Shown piece by piece: positions 2,781 through 19,772 of a DNA stretch of 20,000 bases (position 1 is its first letter; every line of letters begins with the position of its first letter). The stretch lies in assembly GCA_046563655.1 (NCBI GenBank), contig CM102289.1, positions 10,167,436 to 10,187,435 of the forward strand, in the 5' to 3' direction. This DNA is from Yuukianura sp. NJ FZ-2021. Its lineage: Eukaryota. The position numbers and the translations under genes were made by a program. The notes under the pieces were generated by a model. The model was given only the letters and a program-made list of their open reading frames with translations. It made no database searches and had not been told where the DNA came from.

Positions 2781-2945
2781 CCAAAGCAGAATCACTGCTG
2801 AAAGCTGCAAAAGTTAGAGGTGTCTAAAATGTGGAAGACCATAGCGCTTAAGTCACCGTGGCCAAATTCCCGAATTTTTGTATCATTCCCCGCTTAGAAA
2901 AGAATTAAGCTTAATATTCAACATTTATTATCATTTTACAACAAA

Positions 2946-4613
2946 ATGTCAAAGGACCATACCGGAATTCCCATAAGAATGAGATTCTTTGGGCCACATG
3001 GAGGTTTTGCATTGAGCGAGATGGGAGGAAATACACGGAGAGGAGAAAAACTCTTTTCCCATACATTTCTCTCATCTCATCGCCCATCTCTCGCAATGCA
3101 ACTCGCTCTCTGGGCCCAGCCTTATAGAAACCCGGTAAGGCCCTTTGGATCACTGCTCTTTATTTTATAGATAACCATAAAATTTTTATAGCGCTTGTAT
3201 TCATTAACTAGGCAAAACTTATTATAAAAAAAAATAGTTTTAGTATTTGATTTAAGAAGAAAGGAATGGATGCCAAAATGATAGATGCGTGAGTGAGTAG
3301 TAAGAAGTAATGTCAATGTCTTACTCTCAAACCACAAAAGCTGGCTCAATATTCTTTGTCAGGACTATAATATCGTTCAGTCTTTTGTAGGAGCTTATTC
3401 GGCCTGGACCTATCGCAGATGGTGTGAGAGTTGAATACGAGTTAGTAGCAAGTGTTTCAGTAAGTATGCTGTTTGGACCTGCATCCAAGCCAGTTCGCAG
3501 CAAGTATATGGAAATGTATAAATTGAAGTATGGGAAATGTGCAGTCGGACAGTCCAGAAGTTGCTGTTCGATCGAGGACGAGCCTACTTACGCGCAAAAA
3601 GCTGTGTCTTTTGCTTATTTGATCGAAGACGAAACACCCAATGATAAATTTTATAAAGAAGAATTTACAAAGAAGAAAGTTAGAGGTTTGAAACCTAGAA
3701 GCGCTGATGCGGGAAGGAATGCAAGTTCTGGTATTAAATTTTCCACTTTAGTTGGTGGTAAATTCGAGGATTCCAAGAGGTATGATTTGTTTGTTATACG
3801 AACTACTCAAAACTGGGTCCAAGTTAACGAACCTATTTAACGTTAGCATCATTTGTCTTTAGCACAACATCATCTGCTTGTACGGATACGATTGAAAACA
3901 GGGCACTTGACCCAACGGTTACTCCTCCCATCATGGAGTCAGTGGAGACACAAGACGACGACCATAGTCGAACCGAACTGGATGATTTGGAGTAGGATTT
4001 TCATGAAATTATGATAAATTGAGATTGTTCTTTAATTATAATTATTGAGGTTGCGTTTCTAACTACTTGCTTTTATTTATTTTAGAAATTCTAACTGCAC
4101 AGGAGCCTCAAAAAATAATGATGTTAAGAAAGCAGTTAATGTTATTCCTGCTGCTCTGGAAATGAACGATACTACTGTTGCATGCAGCCAAGCATCATTT
4201 GTTACAGTAAATGAAAATTGTCATAGGTTAGTAACCAAAATCTTGTTCCTTCGACTTTAATTTTTTTTAATTTCAATGCACTTTTTGTTTATAAATTTGT
4301 CATTTGTAGGGAGCATACTCCGAGAGGCCTACTCAAAAATATAGATGAAAAACGATTATTTGACTCTATTTATGAGGTGGCTCAAATCAGCGGAATGCGG
4401 TCACTTGGAAGGAATCAATACAAGTGGAAAAGGGTTTGCGAATTAGTTGAATCCTTTAATACTACATCTTTCAAGTCCAAGCAATGGAATTGGGGTGGTG
4501 TAAAAAATTTCTTTTACAATAATCTTATGAAACATGCACGCTACAAGTTATATTATCCTCAAAATTCTGATGCTCGAATTTACTTTGAAACAAAATATAC
4601 ACGGAAAAAGTAG
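2946..4613 (+). CDS. Predicted intact 5-exon gene (~383 aa), unknown protein with a possible C-terminal Myb/SANT-like domain
   Basis: Exons 2946-3134, 3391-3779, 3863-3991, 4086-4226 and 4310-4613 are joined by GT-AG introns with compatible phases (0,2,2,2) and no internal stop. The last exon reads EKRLFDSIYEV…KWKRVCELV…WNWGGVKNFFYNNL. Exon 1 is the least certain. Confidence 0.6.
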
Positions 4614-4637
4614 GAAGCTTCTTATCGTGTTTATGCG

Positions 4638-5560
4638 GGATTCCAAAATGGAAGTCAATTTGGGATTCCAAAATGGAAGTCGAAATGGGACTCCTAAACG
4701 GGTTAGTTTCAACTCAAAATGGATGTCAATATGGGACTCCAAAATGGACGTCCAATTAGACTCCCAAAGAGTTGTTTAAACTCAAAATGGGATTCCAAAG
4801 TGGAACTTAATTTGGGATTCCAAAATGGAAGTCAAAATGGGACTCCTAAAGGGGTTAGTTTCAACTCAAAATGGAAGTCAAAATGGGACTCCAAAATGGA
4901 AGTCAAAATGGGACTCCTAAAGGGGTTAGTTTCAACTCAAAATGGAAGTCAAAATGGGACTCCAAAATGGAAGCGACTCCAAACCCCTCAGTTTTAATTC
5001 AAAATTTAAGTCCATGCAATCGATACACAGTTGGTTTGCACCGACTGTATATGGCAAGAAAGAGCAAGGAAAAATACGTGGCTGGAGTGGGACTCGAACC
5101 CACATCATTACCATTCCGGGGTAACCGCTCTCACCATTGAGCTACCCAGACACAGTACTTTCCTGCTCTGAAATTCTGCCTTTTAACCTGAACAGTCCAA
5201 GTACGACAGCCCTTCATTTCAACTCAAAATGGAACTCCAAATGGACTCCTAAATTCTCTCCTAATTTCAACCCAAAATGAAAGTCAAAATGGGACTTCAA
5301 AATGGACGTCCAAAAGGGACTTCAAAATGGAAGTCGAAAATGGACTCCCAAAGCACTGTCCCAATTTCAACTCCAAATGGAATCCCAAAGTCGACTCCCA
5401 ATGCCCTCTCCTAATTTTACTCCTAAGTGGAAGTAGAAATTGGACTCCGAAAGCACTGTCCCAATTTCAAACAAAATGAAGTCCAAATGGGACTTCAAAA
5501 CGGAAGTCCAAATGGGACTCCAAACGCCTCAGTTTCAACTCAAAATGGAAGTCCAAATAG
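4638..5560. repeat. Complex minisatellite of 12-13 bp units (AAAATGGAAGTC / AAAATGGGACTCC) with a TTTCAACTC-containing spacer, interrupted at ~5012-5212
   Basis: Many direct copies are visible; ORFs here are repetitive (QNGSQNGTPK). Confidence 0.92.
5079..5151 (-). mobile_element. tRNA-derived element (SINE head or tRNA pseudogene) inserted in the minisatellite
   Basis: Minus strand shows A box TAGCTCAATGG, D stem GCTC/GAGC, stem TTACC/GGTAA with loop CCGGAAT (no U33), T arm GTGGG-TTCGAGT-CCCAC, a mismatched acceptor stem and a following T run. Confidence 0.75.
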
Positions 5561-5830
5561 GTGAAAATAAAGTTTTTGGAAAAAGTTTATCTGTTAAGGT
5601 GATTACATACTGTGAGAATAAATTTTTTGGAAAAAAGTTTTTCTTTTAAGGTAATTATACATACTGTAACGTAAGAATTAAATTTTTGAAAAAGTTTCTC
5701 TCTTAAGGTGATTACATACTCTGAGAATTATATTTTTGAAAAAGATTTCTTTTAAGGTGATTACATACTATGAGAATAAAATTTTTGAAAATTTTTCTTT
5801 CTTAAGGTGACTACATTCTATGAGTATTAA
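5558..5830. repeat. ~50-bp degenerate tandem repeat (TAAGGTGATTACATACTNTGAGAATAAATTTTTGAAAAA…), about 5.5 copies
   Basis: TAAGGTGATTACATAC-type core at about 5596, 5647, 5704, 5753 and 5803. Confidence 0.9.
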
Positions 5831-5869
5831 ACCTACGTTGCACCTATGTTTTAAACTTATGTCTACGTT

Positions 5870-6213
5870 TCACCACGAAGGTCGATGGACGTGCAGATTT
5901 CGACTCAGAATACTGCGTACATCTTGAGTGAATGTCGAGGCGTCTAATACTTTGAGGATGAGGAGGGCGGTAGCATCTGTGAACCAGGATTTGATCAGCA
6001 TTGCATTGGCTACAGGCACAGACCACTAGTTAGTTAAATAGTCATTTGGACTGAATCAGCTCTTGAGGTTAAGTTAGCCGGGTAAGAGCGATAAGCTTCT
6101 GGTGAGTTGTCCAGAATAAATATGGAGTTGAGACCATTGGAAATGATGGACAGATCCTTCGAGAAGGAACCCAAGTGAAGAGTGCAGTGTTGTCGCCAGT
6201 ATCTCGTCTCCAG
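5870..6213 (-). pseudogene. CTDNEP1: CTD nuclear envelope phosphatase 1 (Dullard) 3' fragment
   Basis: 6213-6078 reads [45 protein letters not shown]. 6009-5870 reads [45 protein letters not shown]. Both match the CTDNEP1 C-terminus (RYYRQHCT…DNSPGAYRSHP…DVRSVLSRNLH). Donor is CT instead of GT at 6077; small deletions. Not in the ORF track. Confidence 0.92.
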
Positions 6214-8631
6214 GCTGGAGAATCTCCAGATTTAGGTTTCGAATCGGTTTCAGTGTCATTGTCTTTGCTTCCTTCCTCTTTTTTACTTTCTTCACCGCCA
6301 GCATTCTCAGACTGTTCGCTGTTCTCTCCGTTTGTGCTGGAATATCATCTCCACTCCCTGTAAAATGAAATGTTTCCATCACAATCTAATTCAAATGCTA
6401 AATCCCGCTTATTTCAAAATTAACCTGAAAATAACTTGCTAAAAGCTGATCCCAATTTAGACAGGGTATCCTCTTCTGGAGAAGCAACTGTTTCCACGGT
6501 TGCATTCTTCTGAAAAACAGATTCTACTAGTAGAGTGAGACTGATGATTCCATTTTCGTCCAAATTGTAATGGGCTTTGACGCCTTTCACTTCAATACCA
6601 TCGCCAATATTTTTAACACCTTTCAGATTCACTTTGGTAATGTTAGGAGTCTCGGTGGCACTAAAAACAACAAAAATGGAAATCAGCTGATACTTAAATT
6701 AACAAATTAAAAGCAAATCTTACTTGGCTTATGGCTTGGTGTGCTGGAACTTGCAACTCGCCGTAGCTGACGTAGAAACTGAAATCGTCTACGCTTATTG
6801 AATGTTCAGATCTTCTGTGGATAAGGATTCATGTAAGAAAAGAAAGTTCGGCGAACAATCTTGACTGGCCGGGCGGCTCCATCTTCTCCCTCCAGTTCCC
6901 GCTCAAAATCGACCTGCAAAAGAAACATTTCATTATTTGATGACTAATTTGAGCGATTTGTTTTAAAAACTTACCAAAATGGGAAAGAGAACAGCATTTT
7001 TGGTCAAAAACTTTTTCACTTTGAATCCAGAGCTGAGATCAGTTGCTTTGTAAACGGCGCCCATCACTGCAGCCTCGTCCGTGTTCTGACTCTTTCCTAA
7101 TTCTCGTTTCAAAACTTCAGTCAGTTTTTCCTGGACTTTTGGAATACGCGTTCCAGCTCCAACTAAAATGACTTGGTCAATGAGGTCCCTTGTAATTCCA
7201 GCGGCTGTTAACGCTTGTTCAACTGGATAGTTGACACGTTCGACCAGATCTTCACATAAACTCTCAAACTCGGCACGGGAAACGGAAGTTTTGAAGTCTT
7301 GTTCATCCAAAAGACCTTCAACCTGTAATCAAAAAGTCAGCACATTTCAAACATCGTTTTCAAAATTTAGTTCTTTCGAAGTGTTTTCATATTTTCATGG
7401 TTGAATCATTCAAATGGTGACTTCAGCCTGCATGTAACATGAACCGAAGCGCATTCTTTTACATTTGAAGTTTGAACGGAATAACAAGGAAAAAGTTGCG
7501 GTTCGAAAATACTTCAAAAGTAGTAAAAAAAATGAAGTAGAAACGTAGAAAAAATTTTTTACCTGAGCGTAGTGATCAGCGTTAGCACTCAAAACGTTTT
7601 TGAGTCCGCCGGTTTCCTTGAACAATTTGGCCAGGGTACGGCGGCTAGTAAAAACATTAGTTTCGGTCTTCTTCAGGTCATTGAAAGCCTTGCCCAGAAA
7701 ATCCCTCAGCCGAAGTTGCATTTCCAGACCACCCAGTGTATGATCGTATCTGAAACCAAGTGAATCAGCTGATCAACTTATTTCTGAAAACATGATGTTC
7801 GCAGTGTAATTTCAAATTCTAGACTTACCCAACACCAAGAATTGTCAACTGTGGATTAGTTTCAACTACTCCCTTCTCCTTAGTTTTCGTCATCTGATAG
7901 CTGATTACAGTAGCAACTGTAGTGGATGCTCCCATGTCATACAAGAGAAGGTGCTGAGGAGTCTCGTTGAAATCTTTTCAACAAAAAATACAATAGTTCA
8001 AAGCACCTAACAACATTCAAGTGTATTAAAAACGCCATTCCGACGAATAAAATTATCAAAATTCAAATATTTTGTGAGAGATTGATTACTGACCGTGGTT
8101 GCGTTTATGAACTGAAGAACATTGATATCCGCCAATTCGGATGCGTGCAGAACTGCTTGTCTGTCGGCTTGGTTGAAATAAGGTGGAACGGTGATGAGTG
8201 CTTCCATGACCGGTTGACTAGAAAACTCCTGAGCATAGTCACGCGCTTGGCTTAGAATCATTCCAAGGAGTTCCTCAGATGAATAAAAAGGTTCACTACA
8301 AACAGATAAATCAGTAATTAATAATTAATCATCAATCAGCTGTTATCGATTTAGGTTACGGCACCTGTCATGTTGAAAAAGAACTGTCCCACAGTCAGGA
8401 TCAGGAACTAAGTTGTAGTAAGGAAATCTCTTTTGATAAAGCTCTACAATTGGATTATCAATCTTCTTTACCAAGAGTTCCAAGAAGTAAAGGTAAGCAT
8501 TGGATGGGAAACGAACTGCTACGTTCAGTGCATCTTCTCCAATGAGCCGCTCATTGTCACGGAACGATACGGCAACTGGTGTTTTCCGCTTTGACTTGGG
8601 CACTCCAGGCTATAATAAAACGTATTAAGAG
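6214..8631 (-). pseudogene. HYOU1: Hypoxia up-regulated 1 / GRP170 (ER Hsp70-family) internal fragment, 8 exons
   Basis: Exons 8609-8365, 8295-8094, 8006-7829, 7749-7563, 7322-6975, 6913-6724, 6660-6425 and 6357-~6222. Motifs [63 protein letters not shown]. In-frame TGA at 7980-7978 and 6808-6806, frameshifts, and a deletion after PGVP. No signal-peptide exon and no C-terminus. Confidence 0.95.
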
Positions 8632-8694
8632 TCCAGCATCCTCCTCCCCTTGTCCACTTCATCCGCAACTCCTGTTTTCAAATTCACAACTTAA
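8632..8694 (-). pseudogene. CTDNEP1: CTDNEP1/Dullard short middle fragment (intron 3' end plus exon start GVADEVDKGRRML)
   Basis: 8638-8694 is 56/57 identical to 12507-12563. The reading frame continues at 6213 (…[13 protein letters not shown]). Confidence 0.88.
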
Positions 8695-8728
8695 ATGGGA
8701 TTTGGAAACTTCAATTAAGATCTCTTAC

Positions 8729-9928
8729 CCGATTTTTGGATTGTGTTTCCTGGGATTCGTTACTGTAGTGCATTTGGGAAAGAGTTTCTTCACATCCTCT
8801 CTAGTCACATCGGCATGAATGTTCGTCACGTAGAGACAAAATGGGTCAATGTGCTCAGGGTTATTCGTCACACGCGTGTCACTGTCCAGTTTCTCCTCCA
8901 CCTTAGAATAAAAACAAAGCTAGATAACTATCAACCCAAGCAAGAGAATAAAGATACTTGGAGGTTTTAGAATGAACTGGAAATGTTTAAACTTACGGTG
9001 ATATTTGAACCAGCGAATTTGACTTTCTTCAAGGCTTCCACTCCCTTCTTGACGTCTGCGTCGTGCTTGAAGATGACGAGAAACTGTCTGGGTTCGACAG
9101 ATTTGGCAAAGACTGCAATTTCGATGCCCCCATGCCACGCCTTCACAATTTGCTCTGTGATGGGAGGGTCATGCACTTTGATCAAGTACACACGACCACC
9201 ATGACCCAGCTCCTGCTCCGCCTTCATTCCTCGCTCGCAGGCTCCAGCCGGTCTTGGATTAGAACCCAATTTCTAAACACAGTCACAAGTTTACCAATTG
9301 GGAAGAAAGGTAGTGGAAAAGCGTGGATTACTTACGCTAGTCAAGCGTTGGAATCGGCCCTTCGTCTGGGCTTTCTTGTGAATGTTCTTACTCTGCGCAG
9401 AAACTTTATTCAATCCTCCCTTGGCTTGATCTTTCTTCTGGAACTTGTGCTTTGGCTGTTGCGTGGCTGGAGCTTTCGGTGGCGAAGTGCCTTTCGTCAC
9501 TTCCACCTTCTTTGCACCCACTGGTGGAGGAGCCACTTTCTTGTTCAAATTCTGAGGTTGAGTCTTCTGATTGTCATGCTTCTGTTCCTGTTTCGGAGGA
9601 TCTCCACCTACAGCCAAAAAACAGTTTTTAGAAAAGTTGATTCCAGATATCTGAAAGTAATTAACTGGTTTGGTTACCTTTGCATTGTGGCTGCTTGGTA
9701 CTTTGTTGACTACCGAAGGACTTGTTTCCTCCGAATTTATTGGGACGCTGACCTTGAAGTCCTCCAGGGGATTTACCTTGTTGGTTTTTGGGAAATTTGG
9801 ATGGGTATTGTTTCCCCCAACGGACTGCAAACACAAAACACAATCTTCAAGTCATAATTAAGTCAAGACTTAAGTAAGGAAGGAAAAATAGGAAAACTTA
9901 CCTTTCGTTTCTCGGCTGCCATGATCAT
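8729..9928 (-). pseudogene. 5' part of a two-RRM RNA-binding protein gene (painting-of-fourth/nucleolin-like), 5 exons
   Basis: Exons 9922-9902 (MAAEKRK), ~9824-9678, 9607-9336, 9272-8996 and 8901-8729. K/Q/P/G-rich N-terminus, a degenerate RRM (RVYLIKV…FLVIFKH…LKKVKFAGSNITV) and the start of a second RRM (IDPFCLYVTNIHADVTREDVKKLFP). One frameshift near 9805; truncated inside RRM2. Confidence 0.75.
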
Positions 9929-9960
9929 GTTCCCTTCAACTATTCTGTACTTCCTACCAG

Positions 9961-10122
9961 GAAACAACTTGTGGATTAAGCAATGAACAGACGGTGACCT
10001 TTAAGTTGGACGACGTCGAGGTCAACGTAATGACAACTGGATGAGCGACTACTGCTGACAAGGAGGAATTCAAAGTGAATCTGAGAACAGGGACTTCCAC
10101 TTCACAGAGGAGTAACAAGTAA
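9961..10122 (+). pseudogene. Possible last-exon fragment of an unidentified gene
   Basis: Pyrimidine tract plus CAG at 9958-9960, then ETTCGLSNEQTVTFKLDDVEVNVMTTG*ATTADKEEFKVNLRTGTSTSQRSNK* with one internal TGA. Confidence 0.3.
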
Positions 10123-10414
10123 CTCCACTGGTCTTATTTATAACTTTTTCTTTTCTGAGTGCGGACCACGCGTGTAACAAAAATTCCGCCATAAAGTCAC
10201 TATCGGAGGCTAATACTCGGAAAAGAGTAGAAACTGCAGATAGAGTTATCTGATTCTTAGACACTCCTATGTTTTGTACTTGACACAAAGTGCGGGAACC
10301 TAATTTAAATAGTTTAAGTTGTTAGATTTAACAAATCTAATACAATTCGATTACAAGAAAACAATTACTAAATTAATTAGTAATGAAGAATAATTATCTG
10401 TTGCTTTGCTTCAG

Positions 10415-11093
10415 TTTGAATAACAACTTGTGCAACTGTTGTTATTCACTTGATCTGGACCTGGAGGATTAGTGGAGGAAGACTCGTCTCCAATCAACTA
10501 AACGGTAACAATGTAACTTAAAAGGGAATCAGTTTTTACATGTGTTTTTATATCCTTAGGTCAGTTGGTTGTTAGCGATTAGTGACTCGGACGACACTGA
10601 CTTGGAGAACTTACGACAACTGGCCCTCAGCAGTCTCCTCAAGAACAACTTCCCACTTCAGACGAGTGAGTGCTGTGAGTGTTTCCCTGTCCACTTAGTA
10701 CTTTTCAATCATCATAGTGTTTCGTTTGTTTTGTATTAGGTCTTTTACCGTTCAACCTCCAACCTCATCTCAATTGAACCGGTGGAGAACTCCAAAAGAA
10801 GAATGAGGATGATGGACCCACAGTAGAGGAAGATGACAACGGACAGAGTGACGACGACAGGAGCAGTGGAAGCGAATATGCGGTTGTCGGTAATTGTCAC
10901 AACCAATGAAGCTAAAGGAACTGGACGTTGTTATGAATTTGTCGCTGGCTGTTGTGTTTTTCTAGAAGAGGGACTTTCTGTTTCATGTGGTGATGTGGAC
11001 CAAGTGATTGAGGAAGTTGTTGTGTCGGAGGGTGAGAACATGAACATGACAAGTCCAGAGGAAGAAGAGGCTGAAGATGCCGCCGTCAGTTAG
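10415..11093 (+). pseudogene. 5' fragment of an unidentified acidic protein gene (multi-exon)
   Basis: GT-AG introns at about 10505-10559, 10666-10739 and 10890-10965. Peptides SDSDDTDLENLRQLALSSL (preceded by ATT at 10578, a plausibly mutated ATG), STSNLISIEPVEN, EDDGPTVEEDDNGQSDDD and DQVIEEVVVSEGE; frameshifted. Confidence 0.5.
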
Positions 11094-11149
11094 CCATGCT
11101 TCTTTCGACGAGATTCACTTAGGAGTGCATTAGGAGTAACCTAATGTCA

Positions 11150-11550
11150 GACCGAGACGATTTGCTCAGTCGTCGATTCACGCCACATGACAACACGAGT
11201 ATCAACATTGACTATTCCATCCAGCATCATAGTTCTCTCCAGGTTAGCTCATAACATCATAAACTACAAATCCCGCAATGCCAAATAAAATGTCACTTTA
11301 CCAGAACGCCCACCGTGGAATCGATGACATGCTGTCGCAGGGATACCAAATACTTGGGAATTTGCGTGATCAGGAGTCCATCCTGAAGCAAACGAAGACA
11401 AGGATTCTAAACTTTACAAACACACTGGGACTATCTAACACCGTGATGCAGTTCATAGAACGCCGTGCATACCAAGACAAGTTTGTTCTCTACGGTGAGA
11501 TGCTTCTCACACTAACCATCATCTTTTTCATTTACATGTACTTTCTCTAG
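11150..11550 (+). pseudogene. GOSR2: Golgi SNARE membrin/GS27 3' half
   Basis: Exons 11150-11242 (RDDLLSRRFTPHDNTSINIDYSIQHHSSLQ) and 11305-11550 (NAHRGIDDML…LGLSNTVMQFIERRAYQDK plus TM helix). N-terminal half is absent; Glu where the family has GGM at the TM start. Confidence 0.92.
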
Positions 11551-11758
11551 ACCTTTCTCCCAACTTCATCTGTGATTCGTCTCCCTAACTTCTAAGCTTA
11601 TTAAATCATATCGTCCGTTTTCCTAAAATACGAGAGGATCTACCGGAGAGAAGAAGTGATTAGAATTAGTTGGATATTTCGTTTTAATCAAAGATACCTC
11701 GCCATGCCATCCACTGAAGTTTAATGGAAACTAGTGTTTAATTAGTAATTGAAGTACA

Positions 11759-12478
11759 CTATGGTCCAGCGGGGGCATGAGGGGCAGAGGTTCTTATGAT
11801 GTCAGAGTCACCAGGATCCGTGATGGAGAGGGTGCAGACTCGGAAGTACTTTCCACAGGCAGTCCCTAGCTCAATGTTGTTTCCAGTGTAGTGGTGGACT
11901 CCAGTCTTGGCCAACATTCCGTAGTACTCAATCTCTCACTTTCTAAAGACAGAAGAAGAGAAACACGACAGTCAAGCGCTGCCTCCCAAGATCCATCAGC
12001 AGCACACCATTTGTAAATTGGGAGAGAGGAGTGACTTACCTGAGTGGCGGAGTGTTGTTGGCGATGATGATGAGTTTGACCTTGTCATGTCTCAGTCACT
12101 TGATGGCCTGTTTGTAGCCTAGCACAACTTTTCCTGACTTCATCACAAGGGCCAGTCGGGAGTTGATGCTCTCCGCACTCTTTCTCTAAAAAACAATCAA
12201 AACATGGTAAATGCACAACTGGAGGGAAGCAGCATGTGACATGGTCTCTTTACCTGTTTTTTTTTGAAGCAACCATTTTGAAGTTTCTGGATTTGATGAA
12301 AGAAAGGACTTGTTAAGGGACCTGGACAGCAATAGGATACGAATGAAACCATTTGAATGGTTCATGAGTCGGTAGTTACTCGTAAGAATGAATTAGTGCT
12401 TACCTAGTAAATCGTTGACCACGACCAGTAGACCAGTAACACCGAAACACGTTTCTTCCTTGTTACTCGCAAAGAACG
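11759..12478 (-). pseudogene. RPL30: 60S ribosomal protein L30 (eL30), full-length unprocessed pseudogene
   Basis: ATG at 12276; coding exons 12276-12254, 12185-12040 and 11942-11759: MVASKK…SINSRLALVMKSGK…[55 protein letters not shown]. Frameshift in an A9 run; TGA at 12098-12096 and 11938-11936. Upstream non-coding exon (~12478-12404) starts in a pyrimidine tract. Not in the ORF track. Confidence 0.96.
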
Positions 12479-12486
12479 AAATGCAC

Positions 12487-12801
12487 AAATGATGGACAGA
12501 GACCGTATCCTCCTCCCCTTGTCCACTTCATCCGAAACTCCTGTTTTCAAATTCACAACTTAATTAACTTTATCCTACTTACAAATTCCACTCTAAATCC
12601 GACTTTAATTTTGAATAAACATACCTGCACCGTAGATGTCCATTGAGGCAGTGAACACGACCAACTCGAACCATTTGGAAACCTACGCAAAGGAATTCAT
12701 TTGTTATCATGCATGTTGTCTTTATACATTAAAACTTACGACATCCAGGAAGTAGTCGACGTGTGGTCGTTTGTGGACGAAAAACCGAACTGGATGTCGC
12801 T
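12487..12801 (-). pseudogene. CTDNEP1: CTDNEP1/Dullard middle fragment, 3 exons
   Basis: 12801-12740 [20 protein letters not shown]; 12682-12625 VSKWFELVVFTASMDIYGA; 12540-12507 GVSDEVDKGRRI; then 14 nt (12487-12500) identical to 6141-6154. The N-terminal DxDxT catalytic motif is not present. Confidence 0.94.
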
Positions 12802-14790
12802 GAGGCTTTGATGTTGAGGATCCACTGCTTCCAGCATCATCCCGATTCTTAAAAATACAAGATTAGCAAAGTAGTATATTCAGTTAGTTTAGTTGTTGGA
12901 AAGTAAAGTTACTTGAAGGGATTTGGACCAGGAAAGGCTGGTTGGCGGAAGAATCTGGATGGAGCTGACTTGGAGTTTGTTTCCTGCAAATACTTGGGCC
13001 AGTTGAATTCAATTAGTGGAGCACATCGCTTCGGTTCGGCCGAAACTTCCCCACTCGACTCATGTCCAGTTTTCTCTTTGTCTGAATCCGTCACTTCATC
13101 TGGTCCAGGCGACTTGGGATCACTCAGAGAAGAGTCAGATCCCAGGTGTCTCTAGCTTAACGCATGCTTACGTCTTTCCAACTAAATCCAAAATAGGCTC
13201 AAGATTGAGCACTGGCAAAGTCAATGACTTCTTCCCATCTCCATCCGTAGACTTAGGAACAGTTTCTGTTTCTGGATCTTGTTTGAGTCTGAGGAGCCTT
13301 CTGGGTTTGGAAGATTCAGGAGAAGAAACATTGGTGGAACTTTGTCGTTTTGATGTTTTTGTGATTGTGATTCCCTTGGGAATTTTAAACTTGGTAGCTG
13401 GAGACTCCTCTTCAGGCTCAGCGGTTTCTTCCTCCTCAATTATAAATACGAGTTCCAGACATTACCTTTGAATTCCATCGTGATGAGAATGGATGCCAGT
13501 GTTCCACAAGTGACACATCCAGTGACGTCCACACTCTCCTCCTTCTTTGACGTAACGCATGGTTCGGAACTTTGTTCCTTTTCACTCTCCCGGGCGTTCG
13601 GTTGTTCCGAAGAATCGTGAGATGGAATGTCGGGCTTTGGATTGGCGGATTCCTTAGTGGGAAGTGTTGGTTTCGGTAGGATGCTGGTTGAGACTGGTTT
13701 GATTTTGCTGTACTCGAACAGCTGACAGCCTGTGTTTGCTCCTTGATAAAGGCGACAATGGAACTCTCACTCATACTTGACTGCTCTGATGCATTGAAAT
13801 CAACCACCTCCATCATTCCAGAAGTTTCATCCACACAAATCTAAAACAGTGGAAATGGGGAAAAGTCAATTGACTTGGAACAATGTGCTTGGATTTTTGG
13901 TTGCCTTACCTTTCCTTGCAGCCCAGGGATTTTGAAAAGAAGTGGAAACTGGAAACGAAATCTTCTTTATCTGTACAAGTACAAAAAAATTAAAAGTTGT
14001 TGATGGAAATACTGTTTCTTCTTCATTGAACTGACCGTAGGTGAAGCAAAGTTGAATCCAATATCCTGTTAAAAGTATGAAGAAGAGTGTCTAAGTGGCT
14101 CACACTTATTTCTTCGCAGTATTTCCACATCGCACCATGACTCGGATGCTCTGCTCCACTCCATTTCCGTCTATCCCGTGGAATGCTGACTGGATCTGGT
14201 CATAGAGGCTGCTTTTGACTGAACTAAGTCAATCTCCATTTTCACTGGAAGAAAGGACGATACGTGTGGAAGATCTCCAATCAGACGTTGGTCCTTGGAG
14301 TCTTCAGCATCCCCACCTTCAAACTGTGAGGCACCTTCTTCCTCAGCATGTGCTTGTGATTCCACACTGAAACTAAGTCCGTCCTGCTCCTCATCAACAA
14401 ATCCCCACGTCCTGTTCCCGCTTCCAGTCTCTTCAGTTTTAATTAGATCGCTGAAATCATCCACAACGGTGATATAAGTACGTTGGGCCTTTGCTTGCTG
14501 TGTCGAAGGAGTGACGGTGTCAATTTGTGAAACAACGGATGGTGCCTGGAGAAAAATATGAGAGTCCAAACCATTGAAGTTGATAAAAGGACCGAACTAT
14601 AATTTGGACTAACAATTGTAGTAACTGTTGAGGCTGGGACGAATGTGAGAATGGAAGAGCTGTCCACAACAGAGAGAGGGACAGGATGTTGTAGTACTCC
14701 TCCAACACGGTTGGGCAAGGTCGCTGACGCCAGCCCCCCTCCCTGTGAAGGGAATCTTGACCCCTCATCGTCGTCGTTTTTTTTGCATGA
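12802..14790 (-). pseudogene. L(3)mbt / L3MBTL-like MBT-repeat gene, 5' part truncated in the first MBT repeat
   Basis: FNWPKYLQETNSKSAPSRFF…[20 protein letters not shown] is the start of an MBT repeat. Upstream GCKGK|ICVDETSGMMEVV and CVTCG resemble L3MBTL N-terminal motifs. Several frameshifts; donors at ~13465 and ~13171 are followed by only 20-25 nt of intron, implying internal deletions. Assignment of the most upstream exons is less certain. Confidence 0.78.
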
Positions 14791-14812
14791 CTTTAATTGC
14801 ATTGTTCCTTAC

Positions 14813-14881
14813 CTTAACCGATTTTTGATAAATAGTTGATACCAGCTTCAAATTCGTAGTTGTGCTGGTCGTAGATTAACC
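14813..14881 (-). pseudogene. Isolated exon-like fragment (LIYDQHNYEFEAGINYLSKIG*), source unknown
   Basis: Flanked by a TTTTAAG acceptor and a GTAAGG donor; phase is incompatible with the upstream exon ending at 15181. Confidence 0.3.
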
Positions 14882-14899
14882 TTAAAACTGGGTTAGCGC

Positions 14900-15170
14900 A
14901 AGAAATTTGGACATTTTAGGGATTAAAAGTCAATTTGAGCCCGGTTCGGAGACGAAAACACCCCGAAAACGATTTGTTGCGCCGAAGGCGCAAAAAATTT
15001 TGAGATTTTGGGGAAGGAAAGTCAATTTGAGCACGATAAGGCGGTCAGGAAACGTCGTAATGAGTATCTAGGCTCCAAGATTTTTTTAAATTCTTGCTCA
15101 AAAATCCATACCCCTCCTGGCGGCCTTCGGCCGCCAGACCCCTCTTTCCCCGGCTACCCCCTCTGCTTGC
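14900..15170. mobile_element. Intronic MITE-like remnant with GAA-triloop hairpins
   Basis: TTGCGCC-GAA-GGCGCAA (14977-14993), CTGGCGGCC-TTC-GGCCGCCAG (15117-15137), and direct repeat AAAGTCAATTTGAGC at 14926 and 15018. Boundaries are approximate. Confidence 0.5.
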
Positions 15171-15180
15171 CCATCCGTAC

Positions 15181-16125
15181 CTCCAACAGTACTCACAGTG
15201 GCCATTCCATGCTCATCCTGAACACTGAACACGTACTGGGTGTTGGGATCCTGTTGCTGGGAAATCGGAAGGATTTGTCCGTAGTTTCCTCCACTTGCCA
15301 GGTTGAGGATTGGTTGGTCGGTGAATGAGGTGATTGAGGAATCAGAGGGAAGAGCAATCAGTTCGTAGACGTCGTTCCCAGCCAGAACCTCCCCCACTGG
15401 AAACTACGGAAAAGAAATCAACAATGAATTCTCAATTAGGCTGAAATTTTTAATTTTGATGAGAAGAGACTAACATGAATTTGGGCTGGCGCAGTGCGCG
15501 CATTGGTCGTGTCAATAAGCGGCATGAAATTGAGAGGTCCATGGTTTGGAGTAGAGGTCGGCAGAAGAGCAGAGTGTCTCCGTTGTTTTGAATGTTGTAC
15601 AATTGGTTATCCGAGCCCACAACTACCGTTCTTGATGCAGCGTCCAAGTTGCCAGGCAACCCCTCCATGTAAATGTTGTTCATTTGCTGGAAATTGGGAA
15701 CGGAGGAGAGTGTTGCGTAGTTGACTTTAGCGGAACCCACCACTGTTTCGTTGATGGGTGGAGGATTAGGTTGCAGTTGTGTGTTGAGGTGAATCTGACC
15801 AGCGTCCACTGTCACTTGATCTTGGTGCGGATGATGGAAGACAACGTAGTGGCCATGTCCATCAGATGTAACATTCGTCACTCCACTCCCCTCACCGGGA
15901 ACACCGCTCATAGCCACAAAAACTGCAAAGCACCATTAGTAAACAAACATTAAATTAATTACTAACATGGAAGCACTTTGACTATCCAGTTAGATACACA
16001 CAATGGGTTTACCTGAAGCGATGTAGTTGTGATGCTTTAAGATTAACCGGAACTCAATTAATCTTAGTACGACCCTTAATTAAACAACTTTAGATTCTCG
16101 TTTTTTGTTCTTGTGGCTGTAGAAT
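15181..16125 (-). pseudogene. 5' fragment of an unidentified gene (non-coding exon plus two coding exons, Q/N/V-rich low-complexity N-terminus)
   Basis: Non-coding exon ~16125-16013; exon 15922-15475 with ATG at 15911 (MSGVPGEGSG…); exon 15403-15181 (FPVGEVLAGNDVYELIAL…). A frameshift near 15565 is needed to keep phase. Confidence 0.6.
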
Positions 16126-16156
16126 GAAGTGATTTTGGCTTGACTTCCATTTTATA
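16122..16156 (-). promoter_or_regulatory. Pol II core promoter: TATAAAA box plus Inr TCATTC
   Basis: Minus-strand TATAAAA starts at 16156, 31 nt upstream of the A (16125) of TCATTC, which matches the arthropod Inr TCAKTY. A splice donor follows at 16012. Confidence 0.65.
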
Positions 16157-16329
16157 TGAGAGCGAGAGGAGTTGGATTTACCCCTTGGAGGAGTTGGATC
16201 TTACTCCTCTGAAGTATTTATGTGAATCTCAATTCCTGGTGCGGACCGACGAGTGGACAAAACTTCCTCCACAACTTCTTTTTTTGTGAATGCGGAGGGC
16301 TAATCCTCTGAAATGTGTCATAATAGTCA

Positions 16330-17135
16330 TCGCGAGTACTTGCGATATCTACGATTGCTGATTACTCTTTAATTAAAGCATATAGAACTCCGGGATTGTG
16401 TTATCTGACATCAAACTTGTAATCGATTAGTTCTTTGTGATATAACGTATTCCGGAGTTTTAAAGTGCGTAATTAGCCTAATTTCTACTATTGTACCAAA
16501 ACCATGGTCGCAGCTACTTGCGATAACTACGATTGCTGATTTCACCTTAAGTAATCGATTTAAAATCCTGAAATGTGTTATGTCAGCTTGTAATCGATTA
16601 GTTCTTTGCCATGCAACGTATTCCAGAGTTTTAAAGTGCTTAATTAGCTTTAATTTTCACTTTTGTGCCAAACTCACGATCGCATGTACCTACGATGTCT
16701 GCGATTGGAGATTACTCGTAGAGTAATCGATTTAAAATCCTGAAATGTGTTAAATCGACTTGTAATTGATTAGTTCTTTCCCATATAACGTATTCCGGAG
16801 TTTTAAAGTGCTTAATTAGCTTCATTTTTCACTATTGGACCAAAATCTTGATCGCCAGTACTTGCGATTTCTACGATTGCTGATTACGGCTAAAGTAATC
16901 GATTTAAAATCCTGAATTGTGCTATATCAGCTTGTAATCGATTAGTTCTTTGCCACATGACGTATTCCAGAATTTTAATTTGCATAATTAACCTAATTAG
17001 CGCCTATTGTCCTCAAATTCAGTTTTTGCTTAATTACTCAGTAATTATGCAAATTAAAATTCTGGAATACGTTATCTCGACTTGCAATTGATTAGTTCTG
17101 TGCCGTATAACGTATTCCAGAGTTTTAAAATGACA
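16330..17135. repeat. ~173-bp diverged tandem repeat, 4 copies plus a partial copy
   Basis: Units start with TCGC…TACTTGCGAT…TACGATTGCTGATT at about 16330, 16507, 16680 and 16852; shared core TTGTAATCGATTAGTTCTTT…AACGTATTCCRGAGTTTTAAA. Confidence 0.92.
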
Positions 17136-17367
17136 TTTTTGCGCTATTGTCTTAACGCAATTGCAGAGAAACGCATTTTTCGTCGCAAAAACGTTTCGGA
17201 GATGGCCGAATTTGGTGTCAAAAGATGGGGAATTTAAAATACTATCGATTTTGACACCAAAATCTCGCCTATCGATGGATTTTGGCGTTTTTTTTGCAAA
17301 AAACATGATTTTTTTTGCGAAAAAACACAACATAAATACAAGTTTTGATTCCTTTGCTTTCAGTGTT

Positions 17368-17445
17368 GGCATAGTAGCTTACAGGTTTAGAGCGGGGCCT
17401 GTTTAGCACTATGGACGGTGGTTCGAGTCCCCACCATCATTTTTT
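17368..17445 (+). mobile_element. Degenerate tRNA-derived SINE head
   Basis: A-box-like TAGCTTACAGG…AGAGC, B box GGTTCGAGTCC in stem GGTGG/CCACC, followed by a T6 run; no proper acceptor stem. Confidence 0.5.
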
Positions 17446-17449
17446 CGAA

Positions 17450-17970
17450 TGGCCATTTTTTTTTCAAAGTTCATTATATTTTCGCCATATTCATTTTTTT
17501 TCCACAGTCATTTTTTCTCAAATTGCACTTTATTCTCCCACCTTCATTTTCTTGGGGGTAGGGGGGCCGACGTTGATTTTTATTTCAAAATTCAATTTAT
17601 TTTCCCACCGTCATTTTTTCACCACCTTCATTTTTTCCCCACAGTCATTTTTTTTTCAAAGTTCATTTGATATCCCCACCTTCATCATTTTCACACAATC
17701 ATTTTTTCCCCACCGTCATTTTTTTTCCAAAGTTCATTTTATTTTCACAACTTCATTTTTTTCCTACAGTCATTTTTTTGAAAGTTCAGTTTATTCTGAC
17801 ACCTTCATTGTTTTTTCAAAGTTCAATTTATTTTACCATATTAATCTTTTTTCCACAGTCCCTTTTTTTCAAAGTTCAGTTTATTCTCCCACCTTCGTAA
17901 TTTTCTCACAGTCATTTTTTCTCAAGTTCATTTCTTCAAAGTTCAATTTTTTCACAAGTTCACGTTTTTT
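17450..17970. repeat. T-rich degenerate minisatellite (CAAAGTTCA…/CCACCTTCATTTT/CACAGTCATTTTTT; ~17-bp subunits, ~50-bp period)
   Basis: Recurrent motifs are visible directly; they generate the spurious Phe-rich ORFs. Confidence 0.85.
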
Positions 17971-18114
17971 TCAGAATGCCGATGCAGTATTATATTTTCT
18001 AGATTCTGCATTAGAAAGGCCATTGCCAGCAGTTTGCTGGTGTTTGACATTTCAGAAAATTTTGCATTACACCTTTCGTTGTGGGGGGTTTGAGATATGT
18101 CCAAAAGCTCTATA

Positions 18115-19468
18115 AAGGTTTTGCATATATTCGTTCGTTGGATCGGCGAGGTCGATCTCTAGGGTTTTGCATATATTCGTTCGTTGGATCGGCGAGGTCG
18201 ATCTCTAGGGTTTTGCATATATTCGTTCGTTGGATCGGCGAGGTCGATCTCTAGGGTTTTGCATATATTCGTTCGTTGGATCGGCGAGGTCGATCTCTAG
18301 GGTTTTGCATATATTCGTTCGTTGGATCGGCGAGGTCGATCTCTAGGGTTTTGCATATATTCGTTCGTTGGATCGGCGAGGTCGATCTCTAGGGTTTTGC
18401 ATATATTCGTTCGTTGGATCGGCGAGGTCGATCTCTAGGGTTTTGCATATATTCGTTCGTTGGATCGGCGAGGTCGATCTCTAGGGTTTTGCATATATTC
18501 GTTCGTTGGATCGGCGAGGTCGATCTCTAGGGTTTTGCATATATTCGTTCGTTGGATCGGCGAGGTCGATCTCTAGGGTTTTGCATATATTCGTTCGTTG
18601 GATCGGCGAGGTCGATCTCTAGGGTTTTGCATATATTCGTTCGTTGGATCGGCGAGGTCGATCTCTAGGGTTTTGCATATATTCGTTCGTTGGATCGGCG
18701 AGGTCGATCTCTAGGGTTTTGCATATATTCGTTCGTTGGATCGGCGAGGTCGATCTCTAGGGTTTTGCATATATTCGTTCGTTGGATCGGCGAGGTCGAT
18801 CTCTAGGGTTTTGCATATATTCGTTCGTTGGATCGGCGAGGTCGATCTCTAGGGTTTTGCATATATTCGTTCGTTGGATCGGCGAGGTCGATCTCTAGGG
18901 TTTTGCATATATTCGTTCGTTGGATCGGCGAGGTCGATCTCTAGGGTTTTGCATATATTCGTTCGTTGGATCGGCGAGGTCGATCTCTAGGGTTTTGCAT
19001 ATATTCGTTCGTTGGATCGGCGAGGTCGATCTCTAGGGTTTTGCATATATTCGTTCGTTGGATCGGCGAGGTCGATCTCTAGGGTTTTGCATATATTCGT
19101 TCGTTGGATCGGCGAGGTCGATCTCTAGGGTTTTGCATATATTCGTTCGTTGGATCGGCGAGGTCGATCTCTAGGGTTTTGCATATATTCGTTCGTTGGA
19201 TCGGCGAGGTCGATCTCTAGGGTTTTGCATATATTCGTTCGTTGGATCGGCGAGGTCGATCTCTAGGGTTTTGCATATATTCGTTCGTTGGATCGGCGAG
19301 GTCGATCTCTAGGGTTTTGCATATATTCGTTCGTTGGATCGGCGAGGTCGATCTCTAGGGTTTTGCATATATTCGTTCGTTGGATCGGCGAGGTCGATCT
19401 CTAGGGTTTTGAAGATATTGTGTTTCGTTTCGTTGGGATCGGCGAGGTCGATCTCTAGGGTTTTGCAT
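18115..19468. repeat. 46-bp telomere-adjacent tandem repeat (AGGGTTTTGCATATATTCGTTCGTTGGATCGGCGAGGTCGATCTCT), 28 copies plus a degenerate copy
   Basis: Exact 46-nt period from 18115 to 19402 with no spacers; degenerate last copy at 19403-19456. Confidence 0.98.
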
Positions 19469-19469
19469 A

Positions 19470-19772
19470 GTATTCGTTGAAGTTGAAGAAGAGTCGAAGT
19501 TAGGTATTCTAGGAGGTTTGTTGTTGAAGAAGAAGGTTGAAGAAGAAGAAGAAGGGAAGAAGAAGGTGTTGAAGAAGTTAGGTTGAAGGTTAGGTTGAAG
19601 GAGAAGAAGTTGAAGAAGAAGAAGGTTAGAAGTTAGAAGAAGTGAAGAAGAGCAGGTTGTGTTAAGAAGAAGTTGTAGCTGAAGAAGTTAGAGTTGAAGA
19701 AGAAGGTTAAGAAGAAGGTTGAAGGTTAGAGTTGAAGAAGAGGTTAGGGAAGGTTAGGTTGAAGAATTAGGT

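Follow-up and report, generated by a model that had tools for sequence, protein, structure and literature searches.

Patchworks of duplicons at human and primate chromosome ends were reportedly described by Linardopoulou et al. in 2005, and the capture of gene fragments by Helitrons and Pack elements is familiar from maize and rice. FoSTeS/MMBIR produces a chain of templated segments in which copying leaves a template and comes back to it a few tens of bases away, while processed pseudogenes are dead copies of housekeeping genes. The subtelomeric duplicon patchworks of human and other primates are made up of segments duplicated at the DNA level and bits of pseudogenes next to the telomere, which are end-joined, variable in copy number and organisation, and flanked by short tandem arrays (PMC2323237, in excerpt). 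In chimpanzee and gorilla, particular segmental duplications have hyperexpanded with satellites in the subterminal heterochromatin caps, a duplication-derived block becoming a high-copy array near the end whose copy number differs widely among related genomes (PMC3371704, in excerpt). Helitron and Pack-MULE capture leaves unrelated intron-bearing fragments that adjoin one another, are largely co-oriented and become pseudogenised (PMC3789558 and PMC8277862, in excerpt).

In the window analysed here, a stretch of 20,000 nucleotides of DNA, pieces of six genes (CTDNEP1, HYOU1, an RRM gene, GOSR2, RPL30 and an MBT gene) and one unassigned 1.1-kb stretch lie side by side between 5.87 and 16.3 kb (Table 1). 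We regard this block as probably a non-functional subtelomeric duplicon, in which intron-bearing pieces of the six genes were joined stepwise by end-joining or insertional repair of breaks near the telomere. It shares the features listed above with the primate duplicons, but it packs small pieces of 0.06-3.5 kb, nested in one another, into 10 kb, and it belongs to an insect whose telomeric repeats are of the TTAGG type. The amplification described below recalls the ape caps, whereas the unit is here a 3.4-kb chimera of three gene fragments, which in the second sample may be an array or a circle. The adjoining, mostly co-oriented fragments resemble Helitron and Pack-MULE cargo; unlike such cargo, they came with no termini, hairpin, terminal inverted repeats (TIRs) or transposase that we could find, they are accompanied by duplications of 4-5 and 67 bp, and their sub-blocks behave independently. 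The returns to one CTDNEP1 position recall FoSTeS/MMBIR, but one junction is blunt, and the presence of intermediate forms, like the uneven divergence of the pieces, suggests several events. Dead housekeeping copies such as that of RPL30 also bring processed pseudogenes to mind, from which the block differs in that every identified piece has introns, save the 64-bp CTDNEP1 duplicate (which keeps intron-derived bases), and that poly(A) tails are absent; because introns are kept and such tails are lacking, the copies must have been made at the DNA level. Among the literature matches listed there is no insect report of such a mosaic, which does not deny that one exists elsewhere.

Table 1 Features of the mosaic block and its flanks (window coordinates)
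Feature	Position	Strand	Evidence or remarks
Tandem array, left of block	4637-5837		
CTDNEP1 piece B	5872..6212	-	PDB 8ujl_A E 7.8e-16, chain residues 112-161; Pfam NIF 1.5e-7
HYOU1 (GRP170) internal piece	6213..8630	-	Pfam HSP70 6.4e-26, 2.7e-15, 1e-5
CTDNEP1 piece A'	8628..8694	-	Duplicate of final ~64 bp of piece A plus a few HYOU1-junction bases
RRM-protein gene, 5' part	8695..10041	-	P0271, 81% identity, E 2.7e-46; tblastn map
Stretch without gene assignment	10042..11128	.	No match in Pfam, GOSR2 profile or Atlas
GOSR2 (membrin) 3' part	11129..11550	+	Pfam V-SNARE_C 8.2e-16; phmmer 1.4e-32
RPL30 (eL30) pseudogene	11759..12497	-	PDB eL30 residues 8-36 E 2.4e-9, 59-108 E 1.5e-27; Pfam L7Ae 2.8e-8
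CTDNEP1 piece A	12505..12801	-	PDB 8ujl_A E 4.5e-8, chain residues 62-84; mid-exon start and mid-exon end
MBT-domain gene locus, 5' part	12802..16320	-	PDB matches; collinear read contigs
MITE	14708-15179 (with duplication 14699..15188)	.	9-bp target duplication CCTCCAACA, 13-nt terminal inverted repeats
Tandem arrays, right of block	16329-16990, 17454-17962, 18117-19478		

The earlier note on this DNA had placed the block between minisatellite arrays, with its telomere-side end about 3 kb from the TTAGG tract, and this setting was confirmed: arrays occur on both flanks, and a degenerate TTAGG tract begins at about 19.5 kb. Five matches to (TTAGG)3 with at most one mismatch were found, all on the plus strand at 19860-19994, a number reached by none of 200 shuffled controls. 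In a Pfam scan of 139 stop-to-stop ORFs of at least 45 aa, relevant families appeared in seven ORFs, all within 6037-11935 (NIF, HSP70 three times, a weak RRM_1, V-SNARE_C and Ribosomal_L7Ae), and the 34 ORFs outside the block gave no Pfam match. A DUF2195 match among the window ORFs was spurious. The patchwork of gene pieces that the note had seen is thus real, but not its count of at least eight genes, since Pfam, PDB and homologue searches identify six. ORFs at 13.4-15.9 kb and 10.5-10.7 kb matched no Pfam family and had no usable Atlas match; the "unknown genes" suspected at 13-16 kb are instead part of one source locus, since read contigs align 12802-16316 collinearly with the MBT locus. 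Introns are kept, with GT-AG ends in HYOU1, CTDNEP1, RPL30, GOSR2 and the RRM gene, and every piece except GOSR2 is on the minus strand; the note had described kept introns and mostly minus-strand pieces. That the pieces are truncated or disabled holds for the lesions (stops in HYOU1 exons, two in-frame TGA codons in RPL30), but RPL30 is disabled without being truncated.

The note listed CTDNEP1 three times; the three segments do not represent separate captures but a single 3' part of the gene, divided within an exon by a 6.3-kb nested insert, together with a 64-bp duplicate. Piece A comprises three exons (..20 letters / VSKWFELVVFTASMDIYGA / ..VSDEVDKGRRI) and two GT-AG introns. On reading the sequence, piece B picks up exactly where piece A (..GRRI) stops, and runs to the stop codon TGA at 5874-5872 with one intron, whose donor is non-canonical. 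Piece A' holds 18 nt of intron and the exon ending ..VSDEVDKGRRM. The continuity of A and B is matched in contigs from four public runs (X1-X4) of two studies, X3 belonging to the second: the joint 6212→12505, which represents the unsplit exon, occurs in three of the four runs (X2, X3 and X4), with short sides of 26-47 letters. Near-variants of this joint (6213→12508 and 6214→12507) are present in X1 contigs, and a joint 6213→8638 in X4.

Within the insert, the HYOU1 piece covers residues 58 to about 640 (homologue match to 58-594 of a 962-aa insect protein) and keeps at least seven introns together with about 21 nt of the upstream intron; tblastn gave seven HSPs. Its exons carry stops at about 7980 and 6800, and the last one is frameshifted. 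Of 1161 candidates in a homologue search, 449 proteins reached E<=0.001, with a top identity of 75%, and the name is taken from the best 120 of the 449, in which the named ones are insect hypoxia up-regulated protein 1 or equivalent. The RRM gene piece, assigned by P0271 and its Pfam domain, has its start codon at 9928, and corresponds to residues 1-294 of this 435-aa relative. Its cut end lies about 34 nt inside the intron that follows the exon with its end near 8728, which interrupts the RRM domain midway (RRM_1 is at P0271 residues 259-327). A PDB search with the RRM-region ORF 8970-9272 gave chance-level matches only (RBM7, E 0.24). The GOSR2 piece consists of the final two coding exons, residues 94-213 of 213 (tblastn 11129-11242 and 11302-11544), and a profile from 56 full-length GOSR2 proteins matched in 2 of 596 ORFs, with the N-terminal 97 positions missing. 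GOSR2 and RPL30 stand tail to tail, their stop codons 209 bp apart. RPL30 retains four of four coding exons plus introns, with in-frame TGA codons in place of residues 37 and 58 and, in the ATG exon, a shortfall of 1 nt in an A9 run. The stretch at 10042-11128, without Pfam, GOSR2-profile or Atlas match, may be intronic GOSR2 sequence or derive from some unrecognised gene.

The MBT locus is cut within the first MBT repeat, after ..DPQHQSL. Its identity relies on PDB matches, of 12912-13151 to L3MBTL3 (E 5.5e-7) and SCML2 (2.8e-6), and of 12739-12879 to L3MBTL3 (0.0027); a homologue search with 12912-13151 retained none of 28 candidates at E<=0.001. Contigs collinear over 12802-14695 and 15182-16316 continue beyond 12802 into the remaining MBT exon. 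The MITE is missing from other copies, where the joint 14698→15180, with nine shared letters, is found in X1, X2 and X4.

The exon-to-exon junction of the earlier note, MBT HQSL running into CTDNEP1 at 12801/12802, proved exact, and both unbroken exons are found in read contigs. The fusion is blunt, with no bases common to both parents and frames that differ by 2. Contigs that come loose at 12801 carry the CTDNEP1 exon unbroken upstream (two contigs in X1, four in X2), and at 12802 the MBT exon is unbroken in X1. The 6212/6213 junction has one shared base, and CTGGA, a duplication of 4-5 bp, stands at both ends of the HYOU1 insert; these are the signatures of end-joining seen here. Self-BLAST revealed a direct repeat of 67 bp (8628-8694 and 12498-12563, 94% identity). 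Among the contigs listed, which are assembled contigs and not raw reads, none spans the whole block, and 8694/8695 is the only one of the window's own junctions that is bridged, by an X3 contig at place 8704 with at least 31 letters on each side. An alternative junction, 12801→13437/13439, is present in contigs at a depth of 481 in X3 and 199 in X4; the form 12801→13439 has precisely the same CTDNEP1 breakpoint, a coincidence not expected under a simple stepwise model. An X4 contig also carries a joint 10126→16211. Two inverted similarities, one pairing 10105-10126 with 16190-16211 and the other 10342-10357 with the 172-bp array, were treated as chance, sensitive BLAST giving nothing below E 0.009.

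Many diverged variants exist among the read contigs. Of the words sampled from the window, a fraction of 0.54 occurs in the best run, and at many sites the window's letter is absent from the contigs of all four runs. The exact copy in the window may belong to a different individual or represent a minor variant. Originals are present too, namely the unbroken CTDNEP1 and MBT exons, the unsplit CTDNEP1 exon and a HYOU1 version of about 90% identity with ortholog-like length. Relative to the putative parents, the MBT part differs at 6/345, 49/709, 35/767 and 23/1135 letters (about 2-7%), and the HYOU1 piece at 21/207 and 13/117 (about 10%). From the depths and the diverged contigs together we infer more than one copy. 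In X3 the joint of the unsplit CTDNEP1 exon has a depth of 234.5, compared with about 9-10 for the putative single-copy parents, a baseline that we assume from two diverged parent-like versions of similar depth within each run. We did not take the number of contigs as a copy count, since at very high depth it is swollen by error variants. Nor do the depths speak for thousands of copies: organism A probably has only a few, as its parent-like versions have similar depths.

The second study contains a head-to-tail joint, 10041→6623, at a depth of 1048 in X3 (shorter side 233 letters), which defines a 3419-bp unit of RRM, CTDNEP1 and HYOU1 sequence. Depth in X3 is 884 in the bin 6540-6889, where the unit starts (6623), and 1029-1271 over 6890-10039; outside the unit it drops to 53-74 (10040-11789) and 12-100 (12840-16320). 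In depth, the unit exceeds the putative single-copy parents about 100-fold. According to self-BLAST it occurs once in the window, and the equal depths of joint and unit in X3 fit an array or a circle alike. We tentatively entertain, at well short of even confidence, that this chimera is a newborn macrosatellite whose three-gene origin is legible base by base, with copy numbers that differ about 100-fold between two samples, both from one species or from very close ones.

Read on the minus strand, the history would have begun with the blunt, out-of-frame fusion of the 5' part of the MBT locus to the 3' part of CTDNEP1 (12802/12801). A 2.4-kb HYOU1 fragment would then have entered the CTDNEP1 exon, leaving the CTGGA duplication of 4-5 bp, followed by a composite block of 3.8 kb (RPL30, the GOSR2 3' end, the unassigned 1.1 kb and the 5' part of the RRM gene), which presumably went in beside the HYOU1 insert, on its upstream edge, and duplicated 67 bp that include the older junction. 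The MITE may have landed in the MBT part as a fourth step. Later decay would account for the stops, the frameshifts and the lost splice donor, and further copying of the duplicon or its sub-blocks for the variants, including, in the second sample, a head-to-tail array of about 100-fold of the 3419-bp sub-block. Origin from a single locus by deletions alone, which the earlier note had named as a possible refutation of its reading, is ruled out for the inserts within the CTDNEP1 exon; this exclusion does not extend to the MBT-CTDNEP1 fusion. The repeated CTDNEP1 breakpoint (A, A' and B) would also be expected from one template-switching event with returns.

Such an event, a single replicative catastrophe in which break-induced replication with serial template switches (MMBIR/FoSTeS-like) passed from MBT to CTDNEP1 and returned twice to CTDNEP1, copying RPL30-GOSR2, RRM and HYOU1 templates between returns to nearly the same position, seems to us fairly unlikely. 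One CTDNEP1 position was indeed used three times (12505, ~8635 and 6212), with a step back of 64 bp and an overlap of 4-5 bp, a pattern typical of a polymerase that departs from a template and comes back, and every piece is a genomic, intron-bearing copy in a mostly common orientation. The 12801/12802 junction lacks microhomology, however, and the divergence of the pieces is unequal (about 2-7% in MBT against about 10% in HYOU1). Insert-free forms far above the presumed baseline depth, together with the alternative junction on the MBT side, also speak against a single event, as does the 67-bp duplicate, which seemingly holds the older CTDNEP1-HYOU1 junction and so implies an order. We consider it unlikely that a non-autonomous gene-capturing transposon (Helitron, Pack-MULE or Pack-TIR) gathered and spread the fragments. 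Unrelated intron-bearing fragments mostly in one orientation do resemble Helitron and Pack cargo (partly after the excerpted PMC3789558 and PMC8277862), variants exist in more than one copy, a family with a 9-bp target duplication (the MITE) has been active here, and rolling-circle elements can produce head-to-tail arrays. Against this, no transposase or RepHel domain was found by Pfam in the 139 ORFs, and none of 14 inverted pairs of at least 16 nt in 2780-18120 brackets the block, the best pair near its ends (22 nt, 82%) having its second arm inside it. A crude scan of 2.8-18.1 kb for a GC-rich hairpin with CTRR-T gave one site, 18011 (-), away from the junctions and the block ends. The 4-5-bp and 67-bp duplications are at odds with Helitron insertion, which makes none, and sub-block copy numbers vary independently. 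The earlier note had left the choice between a gene-capturing element and a sink built by repeated break repair; the blunt fusion, the nested inserts with duplications, the intermediate forms and the independent sub-block copy numbers favour the sink, and the element lost ground with the lack of transposase or RepHel, bracketing repeats and Helitron-like ends.

That the contig is a chimera stitched by the assembler from chromosome-end repeats is very improbable, even if no more than 0.54 of the sampled words occur in the best run, the window's letter is missing from the contigs at many sites, and four of the five main junctions have no bridging contig among those listed. The breakpoints match to the base the places where contigs of two studies diverge (12801/12802, 12505 and 6212), 8694/8695 is bridged in the second study, and the amplified X3 unit contains both 8694/8695 and ~8631 at uniform depth; moreover, a novel exon-exon junction needs reads that carry it, as an assembler cannot invent one. 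We likewise give hardly any credence to a functional locus, with chimeric genes or a source of small RNA made from the fragments. Two gene 5' ends are present (the RRM start codon, preceded by 113 nt, and the MBT 5' region), followed by 3' parts up to the CTDNEP1 stop, and the RRM-CTDNEP1 junction would give a GT..AG hybrid intron of about 52 nt. Both fusions are out of frame, however, with the RRM exon reaching a stop after four codons and MBT-CTDNEP1 shifted by 2, and the HYOU1 and RPL30 exons have premature stops.

As a stepwise subtelomeric duplicon, the block is a base-resolved record of a subtelomere accreting and nesting pieces of ordinary genes, in which the order of events is still legible, and it comes from the TTAGG-type chromosome ends of insects, for which descriptions at sequence level are still poor. 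It is also a trap for gene annotation, since it yields false HYOU1, RPL30, CTDNEP1, GOSR2 and MBT models, and it might be used as a marker to follow how copy number varies at chromosome ends. Should the tandem joint prove right, it would also show how a mosaic of this kind can give rise to a long tandem array, very different from one sample to another. The macrosatellite reading, if true, would fit a B or sex-limited chromosome, a fast-expanding chromosome-end cap, or extrachromosomal circles.

Repeats frame the AT-rich window on both sides, and the patchwork of gene copies at about 5.87-16.3 kb is, as the earlier note had it, bracketed by arrays (4637-5837 and 16329-19478) near a TTAGG tract that begins at 19522. 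With at most one mismatch, (TTAGG)3 occurs at five sites in 19860-19994, a number reached in 0 of 200 shuffles; all five are on the plus strand, which indicates that the right end is oriented as an insect-type chromosome end. The 48-bp satellite at the other end consists of six 8-mers with the pattern TCCNAAAA, CCTAA included, and its C-rich strand is the plus strand, an orientation opposite to that of the right-end tract. A tRNA-like sequence in the 25/50-bp minisatellite region (5078-5151, minus strand; ARAGORN Ser(GGA), 74 nt; Rfam tRNA, 51.3 bits) may be a tRNA pseudogene or the head of a SINE. Two plus-strand open frames in the AT-rich left flank, 3391-3837 (149 aa) and 4227-4610 (128 aa), match no Pfam family and could be more gene or transposon fragments beyond the block.

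Features of the window, with database matches to the gene pieces
Feature	Position (strand)	Details
48-bp satellite	1-2780	59 copies, 91% matches
25/50-bp minisatellites	4637-5837	
CTDNEP1	6037-6231 (-)	PDB, human chain residues 112-161, E 7.8e-16
RPL30	11762-11935 (-)	PDB, eL30 residues 59-108, E 1.5e-27
RPL30	12099-12185 (-)	PDB, eL30 residues 8-36, E 2.4e-9
CTDNEP1	12725-12862 (-)	PDB, human chain residues 62-84, E 4.5e-8
MBT, ..GMKLEGVDPEHQS of first repeat	12739-12879 (-)	PDB, E 0.0027
MBT, start of repeats	12912-13151 (-)	PDB, L3MBTL3 5.5e-7, SCML2 2.8e-6, Scm 2.1e-4
MITE, 472 bp	14708-15179 (with duplications 14699-15188)	9-bp target duplication CCTCCAACA, 13-nt terminal inverted repeats
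172-bp repeat	16329-16990	3.8 copies
T-rich short arrays	17454-17962	
46-bp array	18117-19478	29 copies, 98% matches
Degenerate TTAGG/GAAG tract	19522 to window end	
NIF phosphatase		Pfam E 1.5e-7
HSP70, three ORFs		Pfam E 6.4e-26, 2.7e-15, 1e-5
RRM_1		Pfam E 0.0075, weak, under Pfam's cut-off
V-SNARE_C		Pfam E 8.2e-16
Ribosomal_L7Ae		Pfam E 2.8e-8

The analysis drew on the window itself, on protein databases and on contigs from public reads. Pfam was run on 139 of the 157 stop-to-stop ORFs of at least 45 aa in 2.9-18.2 kb (the 18 left out are each at most about 68 aa); relevant families were found in seven, all within 6037-11935, and the 34 ORFs outside 5847-16286 had no match. DUF2195 (E 0.0055), under its cut-off, was taken as chance. 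The patchwork is real, but the Pfam, PDB and homologue searches identify six source genes, not the eight or more previously claimed.

The three CTDNEP1 pieces of the earlier note amount to a single 3' gene part, interrupted by 6.3 kb, and a 64-bp duplicate. Piece A, on the minus strand from 12801 to 12505, has three exons and two GT-AG introns and ends in ..DKGRRI, and piece B (6212-5872, minus strand) begins mid-exon and extends to a TGA stop, so that one exon is divided between A and B. The duplicate, A', repeats from piece A the last 18 nt of intron and 37-46 nt of exon: self-BLAST (143 rows, of which three pairs were left once self-matches and arrays were removed) aligns 8628-8694 with 12498-12563 in direct orientation, at 94% over 67 bp, the sole internal repeat of the block.

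The HYOU1 ORF at 6966-7328 (minus strand) matched 449 of 1161 candidate proteins at E ≤ 0.001. Among the best 120 of these 449, source-named relatives are mostly hypoxia up-regulated protein 1 or a Grp170/Hsp70 equivalent, and they are nearly all from insects with a best identity of 73-75%, so that the host is an insect without a close annotated relative. In tblastn, seven collinear matches to a 962-aa relative, with short introns between them, carry residues 58-594 and run from 8609 to 6423; about 21 nt of upstream intron, ending in ..TTATTATAG, precede the first exon, and an additional exon (6357-6213) holds the acidic linker, whose frame is shifted. An in-frame stop lies within a conserved exon at about 7980 (..IFC*KDFNET), and a gap and stop at about 6800 (..PYPQ-KI*TFNK). 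The piece is a disabled DNA-level copy, internally truncated, in line with the former description of the pieces as intron-bearing and truncated or disabled.

That description fits RPL30 only in part, since this copy is disabled yet full in extent, with an ATG exon, three more coding exons and GT-AG introns by sequence reading. TGA stands exactly at the positions of residues 37 and 58, and the A9 run of the ATG exon lacks one base, which could be a homopolymer error of the assembly. Both stops (about 12095 and 11936, minus strand) read AAG-TGA where relatives have Lys and then another residue, a shared context that is possibly coincidental. For GOSR2, the ORF at 11263-11547 (plus strand) had 760 protein matches at E ≤ 0.001 (lowest E 1.4e-32), and tblastn places residues 94-212 of a 213-aa relative on exons 11129-11242 and 11302-11544. 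A profile from 56 full-length relatives matched only these two exons among 596 block ORFs of at least 10 aa (next best E 2.4), and thus the N-terminal 97 profile positions, found in none of these ORFs, are missing. The two genes lie tail to tail, with stop codons 209 bp apart and ATTAAA soon after each, and may be naturally adjacent genes that were copied together in a single segment. In 10042-11128, no gene was recognised with Pfam, the GOSR2 profile or Atlas.

The RRM-gene ORF (8970-9272, minus strand) matched one protein, P0271 (435 aa, RRM_1 domain at residues 259-327; 81% identity, E 2.7e-46), whose residues 1-294 align by tblastn between a start codon at 9928 and position 8728. A GTAAGA donor closes the exon and is followed by about 34 nt of intron and then, at 8694/8695, by a CTDNEP1 intron tail; the piece is a 5' gene part cut within the RRM domain. 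A homologue search with the MBT piece found nothing. Read contigs on the MBT side are collinear with the window over 12802-13146, 13176-13884, 13929-14695 and 15182-16316, with 235 and 411 letters in place of 29 and 44 window letters, and omit 14699-15179. This collinearity indicates that 12802-16316 derives from one locus, and what was formerly described there as "unknown genes" is most simply accounted for by the 5' portion of the MBT locus. Neither gene fusion keeps the reading frame, and the RRM exon would splice via a hybrid intron of about 52 nt to reach a stop after four codons; with the premature stops in HYOU1 and RPL30, this leads us to read the block, from its sequence, as non-functional DNA.

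Parts of the block occur in five public DNA runs. Four of them come from a single sample (organism A, 2025), the fifth from a separate study (organism B, 2021); no RNA run is among those listed. Four runs (X1, X2 and X4 from organism A, X3 from organism B), all as assembled contigs, were compared with 5840-16320 at 80% likeness, and none of the contigs listed spans the whole block. At 12801, contigs (two in X1, four in X2) extend into the upstream CTDNEP1 exon (..PDFILKVTI), and a 2526-nt contig matching from 12802 extends into the remaining MBT exon (..FCVANIVDVQ), so that the CTDNEP1 and MBT exons both exist in unbroken form and the breakpoint is exactly placed; relative to these exons, the junction has 0 shared bases and a frame offset of 2. 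The unsplit CTDNEP1 exon, joining 6212 to 12505, is found in three of the four runs (X2, X3, X4), and X1 has the near-variants 6213 to 12508 and 6214 to 12507; the shorter sides of these joints are just 26-47 letters. An alternative junction joins 12801 to 13437 or 13439 (depth 199 in X4 and 481 in X3). It has the identical CTDNEP1 breakpoint, enters the MBT locus 637 bp further in, and in both runs lies far above the presumed single-copy depth. One X4 contig (depth 63.6) links 10126 to 16211 through 25 letters of other sequence; 10105-10126 and 16190-16211 have weak inverted similarity (22 nt, 82%). Only 0.54 of the window's sampled words occur in the best run, at many listed sites the window's letter is in no contig of any run, and, among the contigs listed, 8694/8695 is the sole junction crossed with 31 or more letters on either side (X3, at place 8704 and 67 letters short of the contig's end); all of this speaks against good representation of the window's copy.

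On the minus strand we infer the order MBT locus, CTDNEP1-A, a segment with RPL30, GOSR2 (plus strand), the 10042-11128 stretch and the RRM 5' part, then A', HYOU1 and CTDNEP1-B. A' retains CTGGA past the point where A stops and B opens with (C)TGGA, which indicates a 4-5 bp duplication around the HYOU1 insert. GG(A/T)CTCT, common to A and A' after the last CTDNEP1 base, is also the first bases of the HYOU1-side junction, so that the 67-bp duplication seems to take in an older junction; HYOU1 would then have come in first and the 3.8-kb block later. Differences from the parent-like contig are 6 of 345 letters in 12802-13146, and 49 of 709 and 35 of 767 further out; from this unequal divergence and the form joining 12801 to 13439, we speculate that the parent gene later supplied or renewed part of the MBT segment.

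Of the two origins first proposed, a break-repair "sink" is probably correct, and we favour it over both a single template-switching event, which is unlikely, and the other original proposal, a gene-capturing transposon, which we consider improbable. Helitron and Pack-TIR capture, reported in insects and other animals (PMC3789558, PMC8277862), is like the block in its cargo but not in its ends. The remark that no transposase is visible was borne out, with no transposase, RepHel or reverse-transcriptase domain in the 139 ORFs; none of 14 inverted-repeat pairs of at least 16 nt in 2780-18120 brackets the block, and a crude search for CTRR-T after a GC-rich hairpin gave one site, 18011, away from any junction. 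The MITE is a genuine small transposon, with its empty site in contigs of X1, X2 and X4, but it is a later passenger and shows only past activity of elements with 9-bp target duplications in this genome. The closest known systems are primate subtelomeric duplicon patchworks (PMC2323237) and great-ape subterminal caps with hyperexpansion of particular segmental duplications (PMC3371704); 40 of 323 matching papers, those listed, include no insect case of such a mosaic.

As an assumed single-copy baseline we took two diverged parent-like versions, of MBT and HYOU1, which have similar depth per run: 1364 (X1), 488 (X2), 8.7 (X3) and about 92 (X4) for MBT, and 329 (X2), 10.2 (X3) and 110 (X4) for the roughly 90% HYOU1 version, in which a 75-for-61-letter replacement restores an ortholog-like length. 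Other HYOU1-like contigs, ungapped at 7577-8021 with about 90-91% identity, have depths of 128.7 (X1) and 21.7 (X4), about 0.1-0.2 times the presumed baseline, and may be a minor variant, another organism or a sign of a wrong baseline. Summed over the block, organism A would have just some 1-5 times the baseline. For organism B, depths of 884 in the bin 6540-6889 and of 1029-1271 over 6890-10039 suggest that a 3419-bp RRM-CTDNEP1-HYOU1 chimeric unit, beginning at 6623, is present at about 100 times the assumed baseline. Elsewhere in X3, the unsplit-CTDNEP1 joint has a depth of 234, and the window-like parts 6190-6539 and 10040-11789 have 53-74, probably about 5-6 times the assumed baseline. 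A 1452-nt X3 contig (depth 1048) runs through 8808-10041 and then 6623-6850, which is the head-to-tail joint of the unit, and because its depth equals that of the unit, nearly all unit copies would lie head to tail, in an array or in circles. This tandem amplification in the second sample is the most interesting lead.
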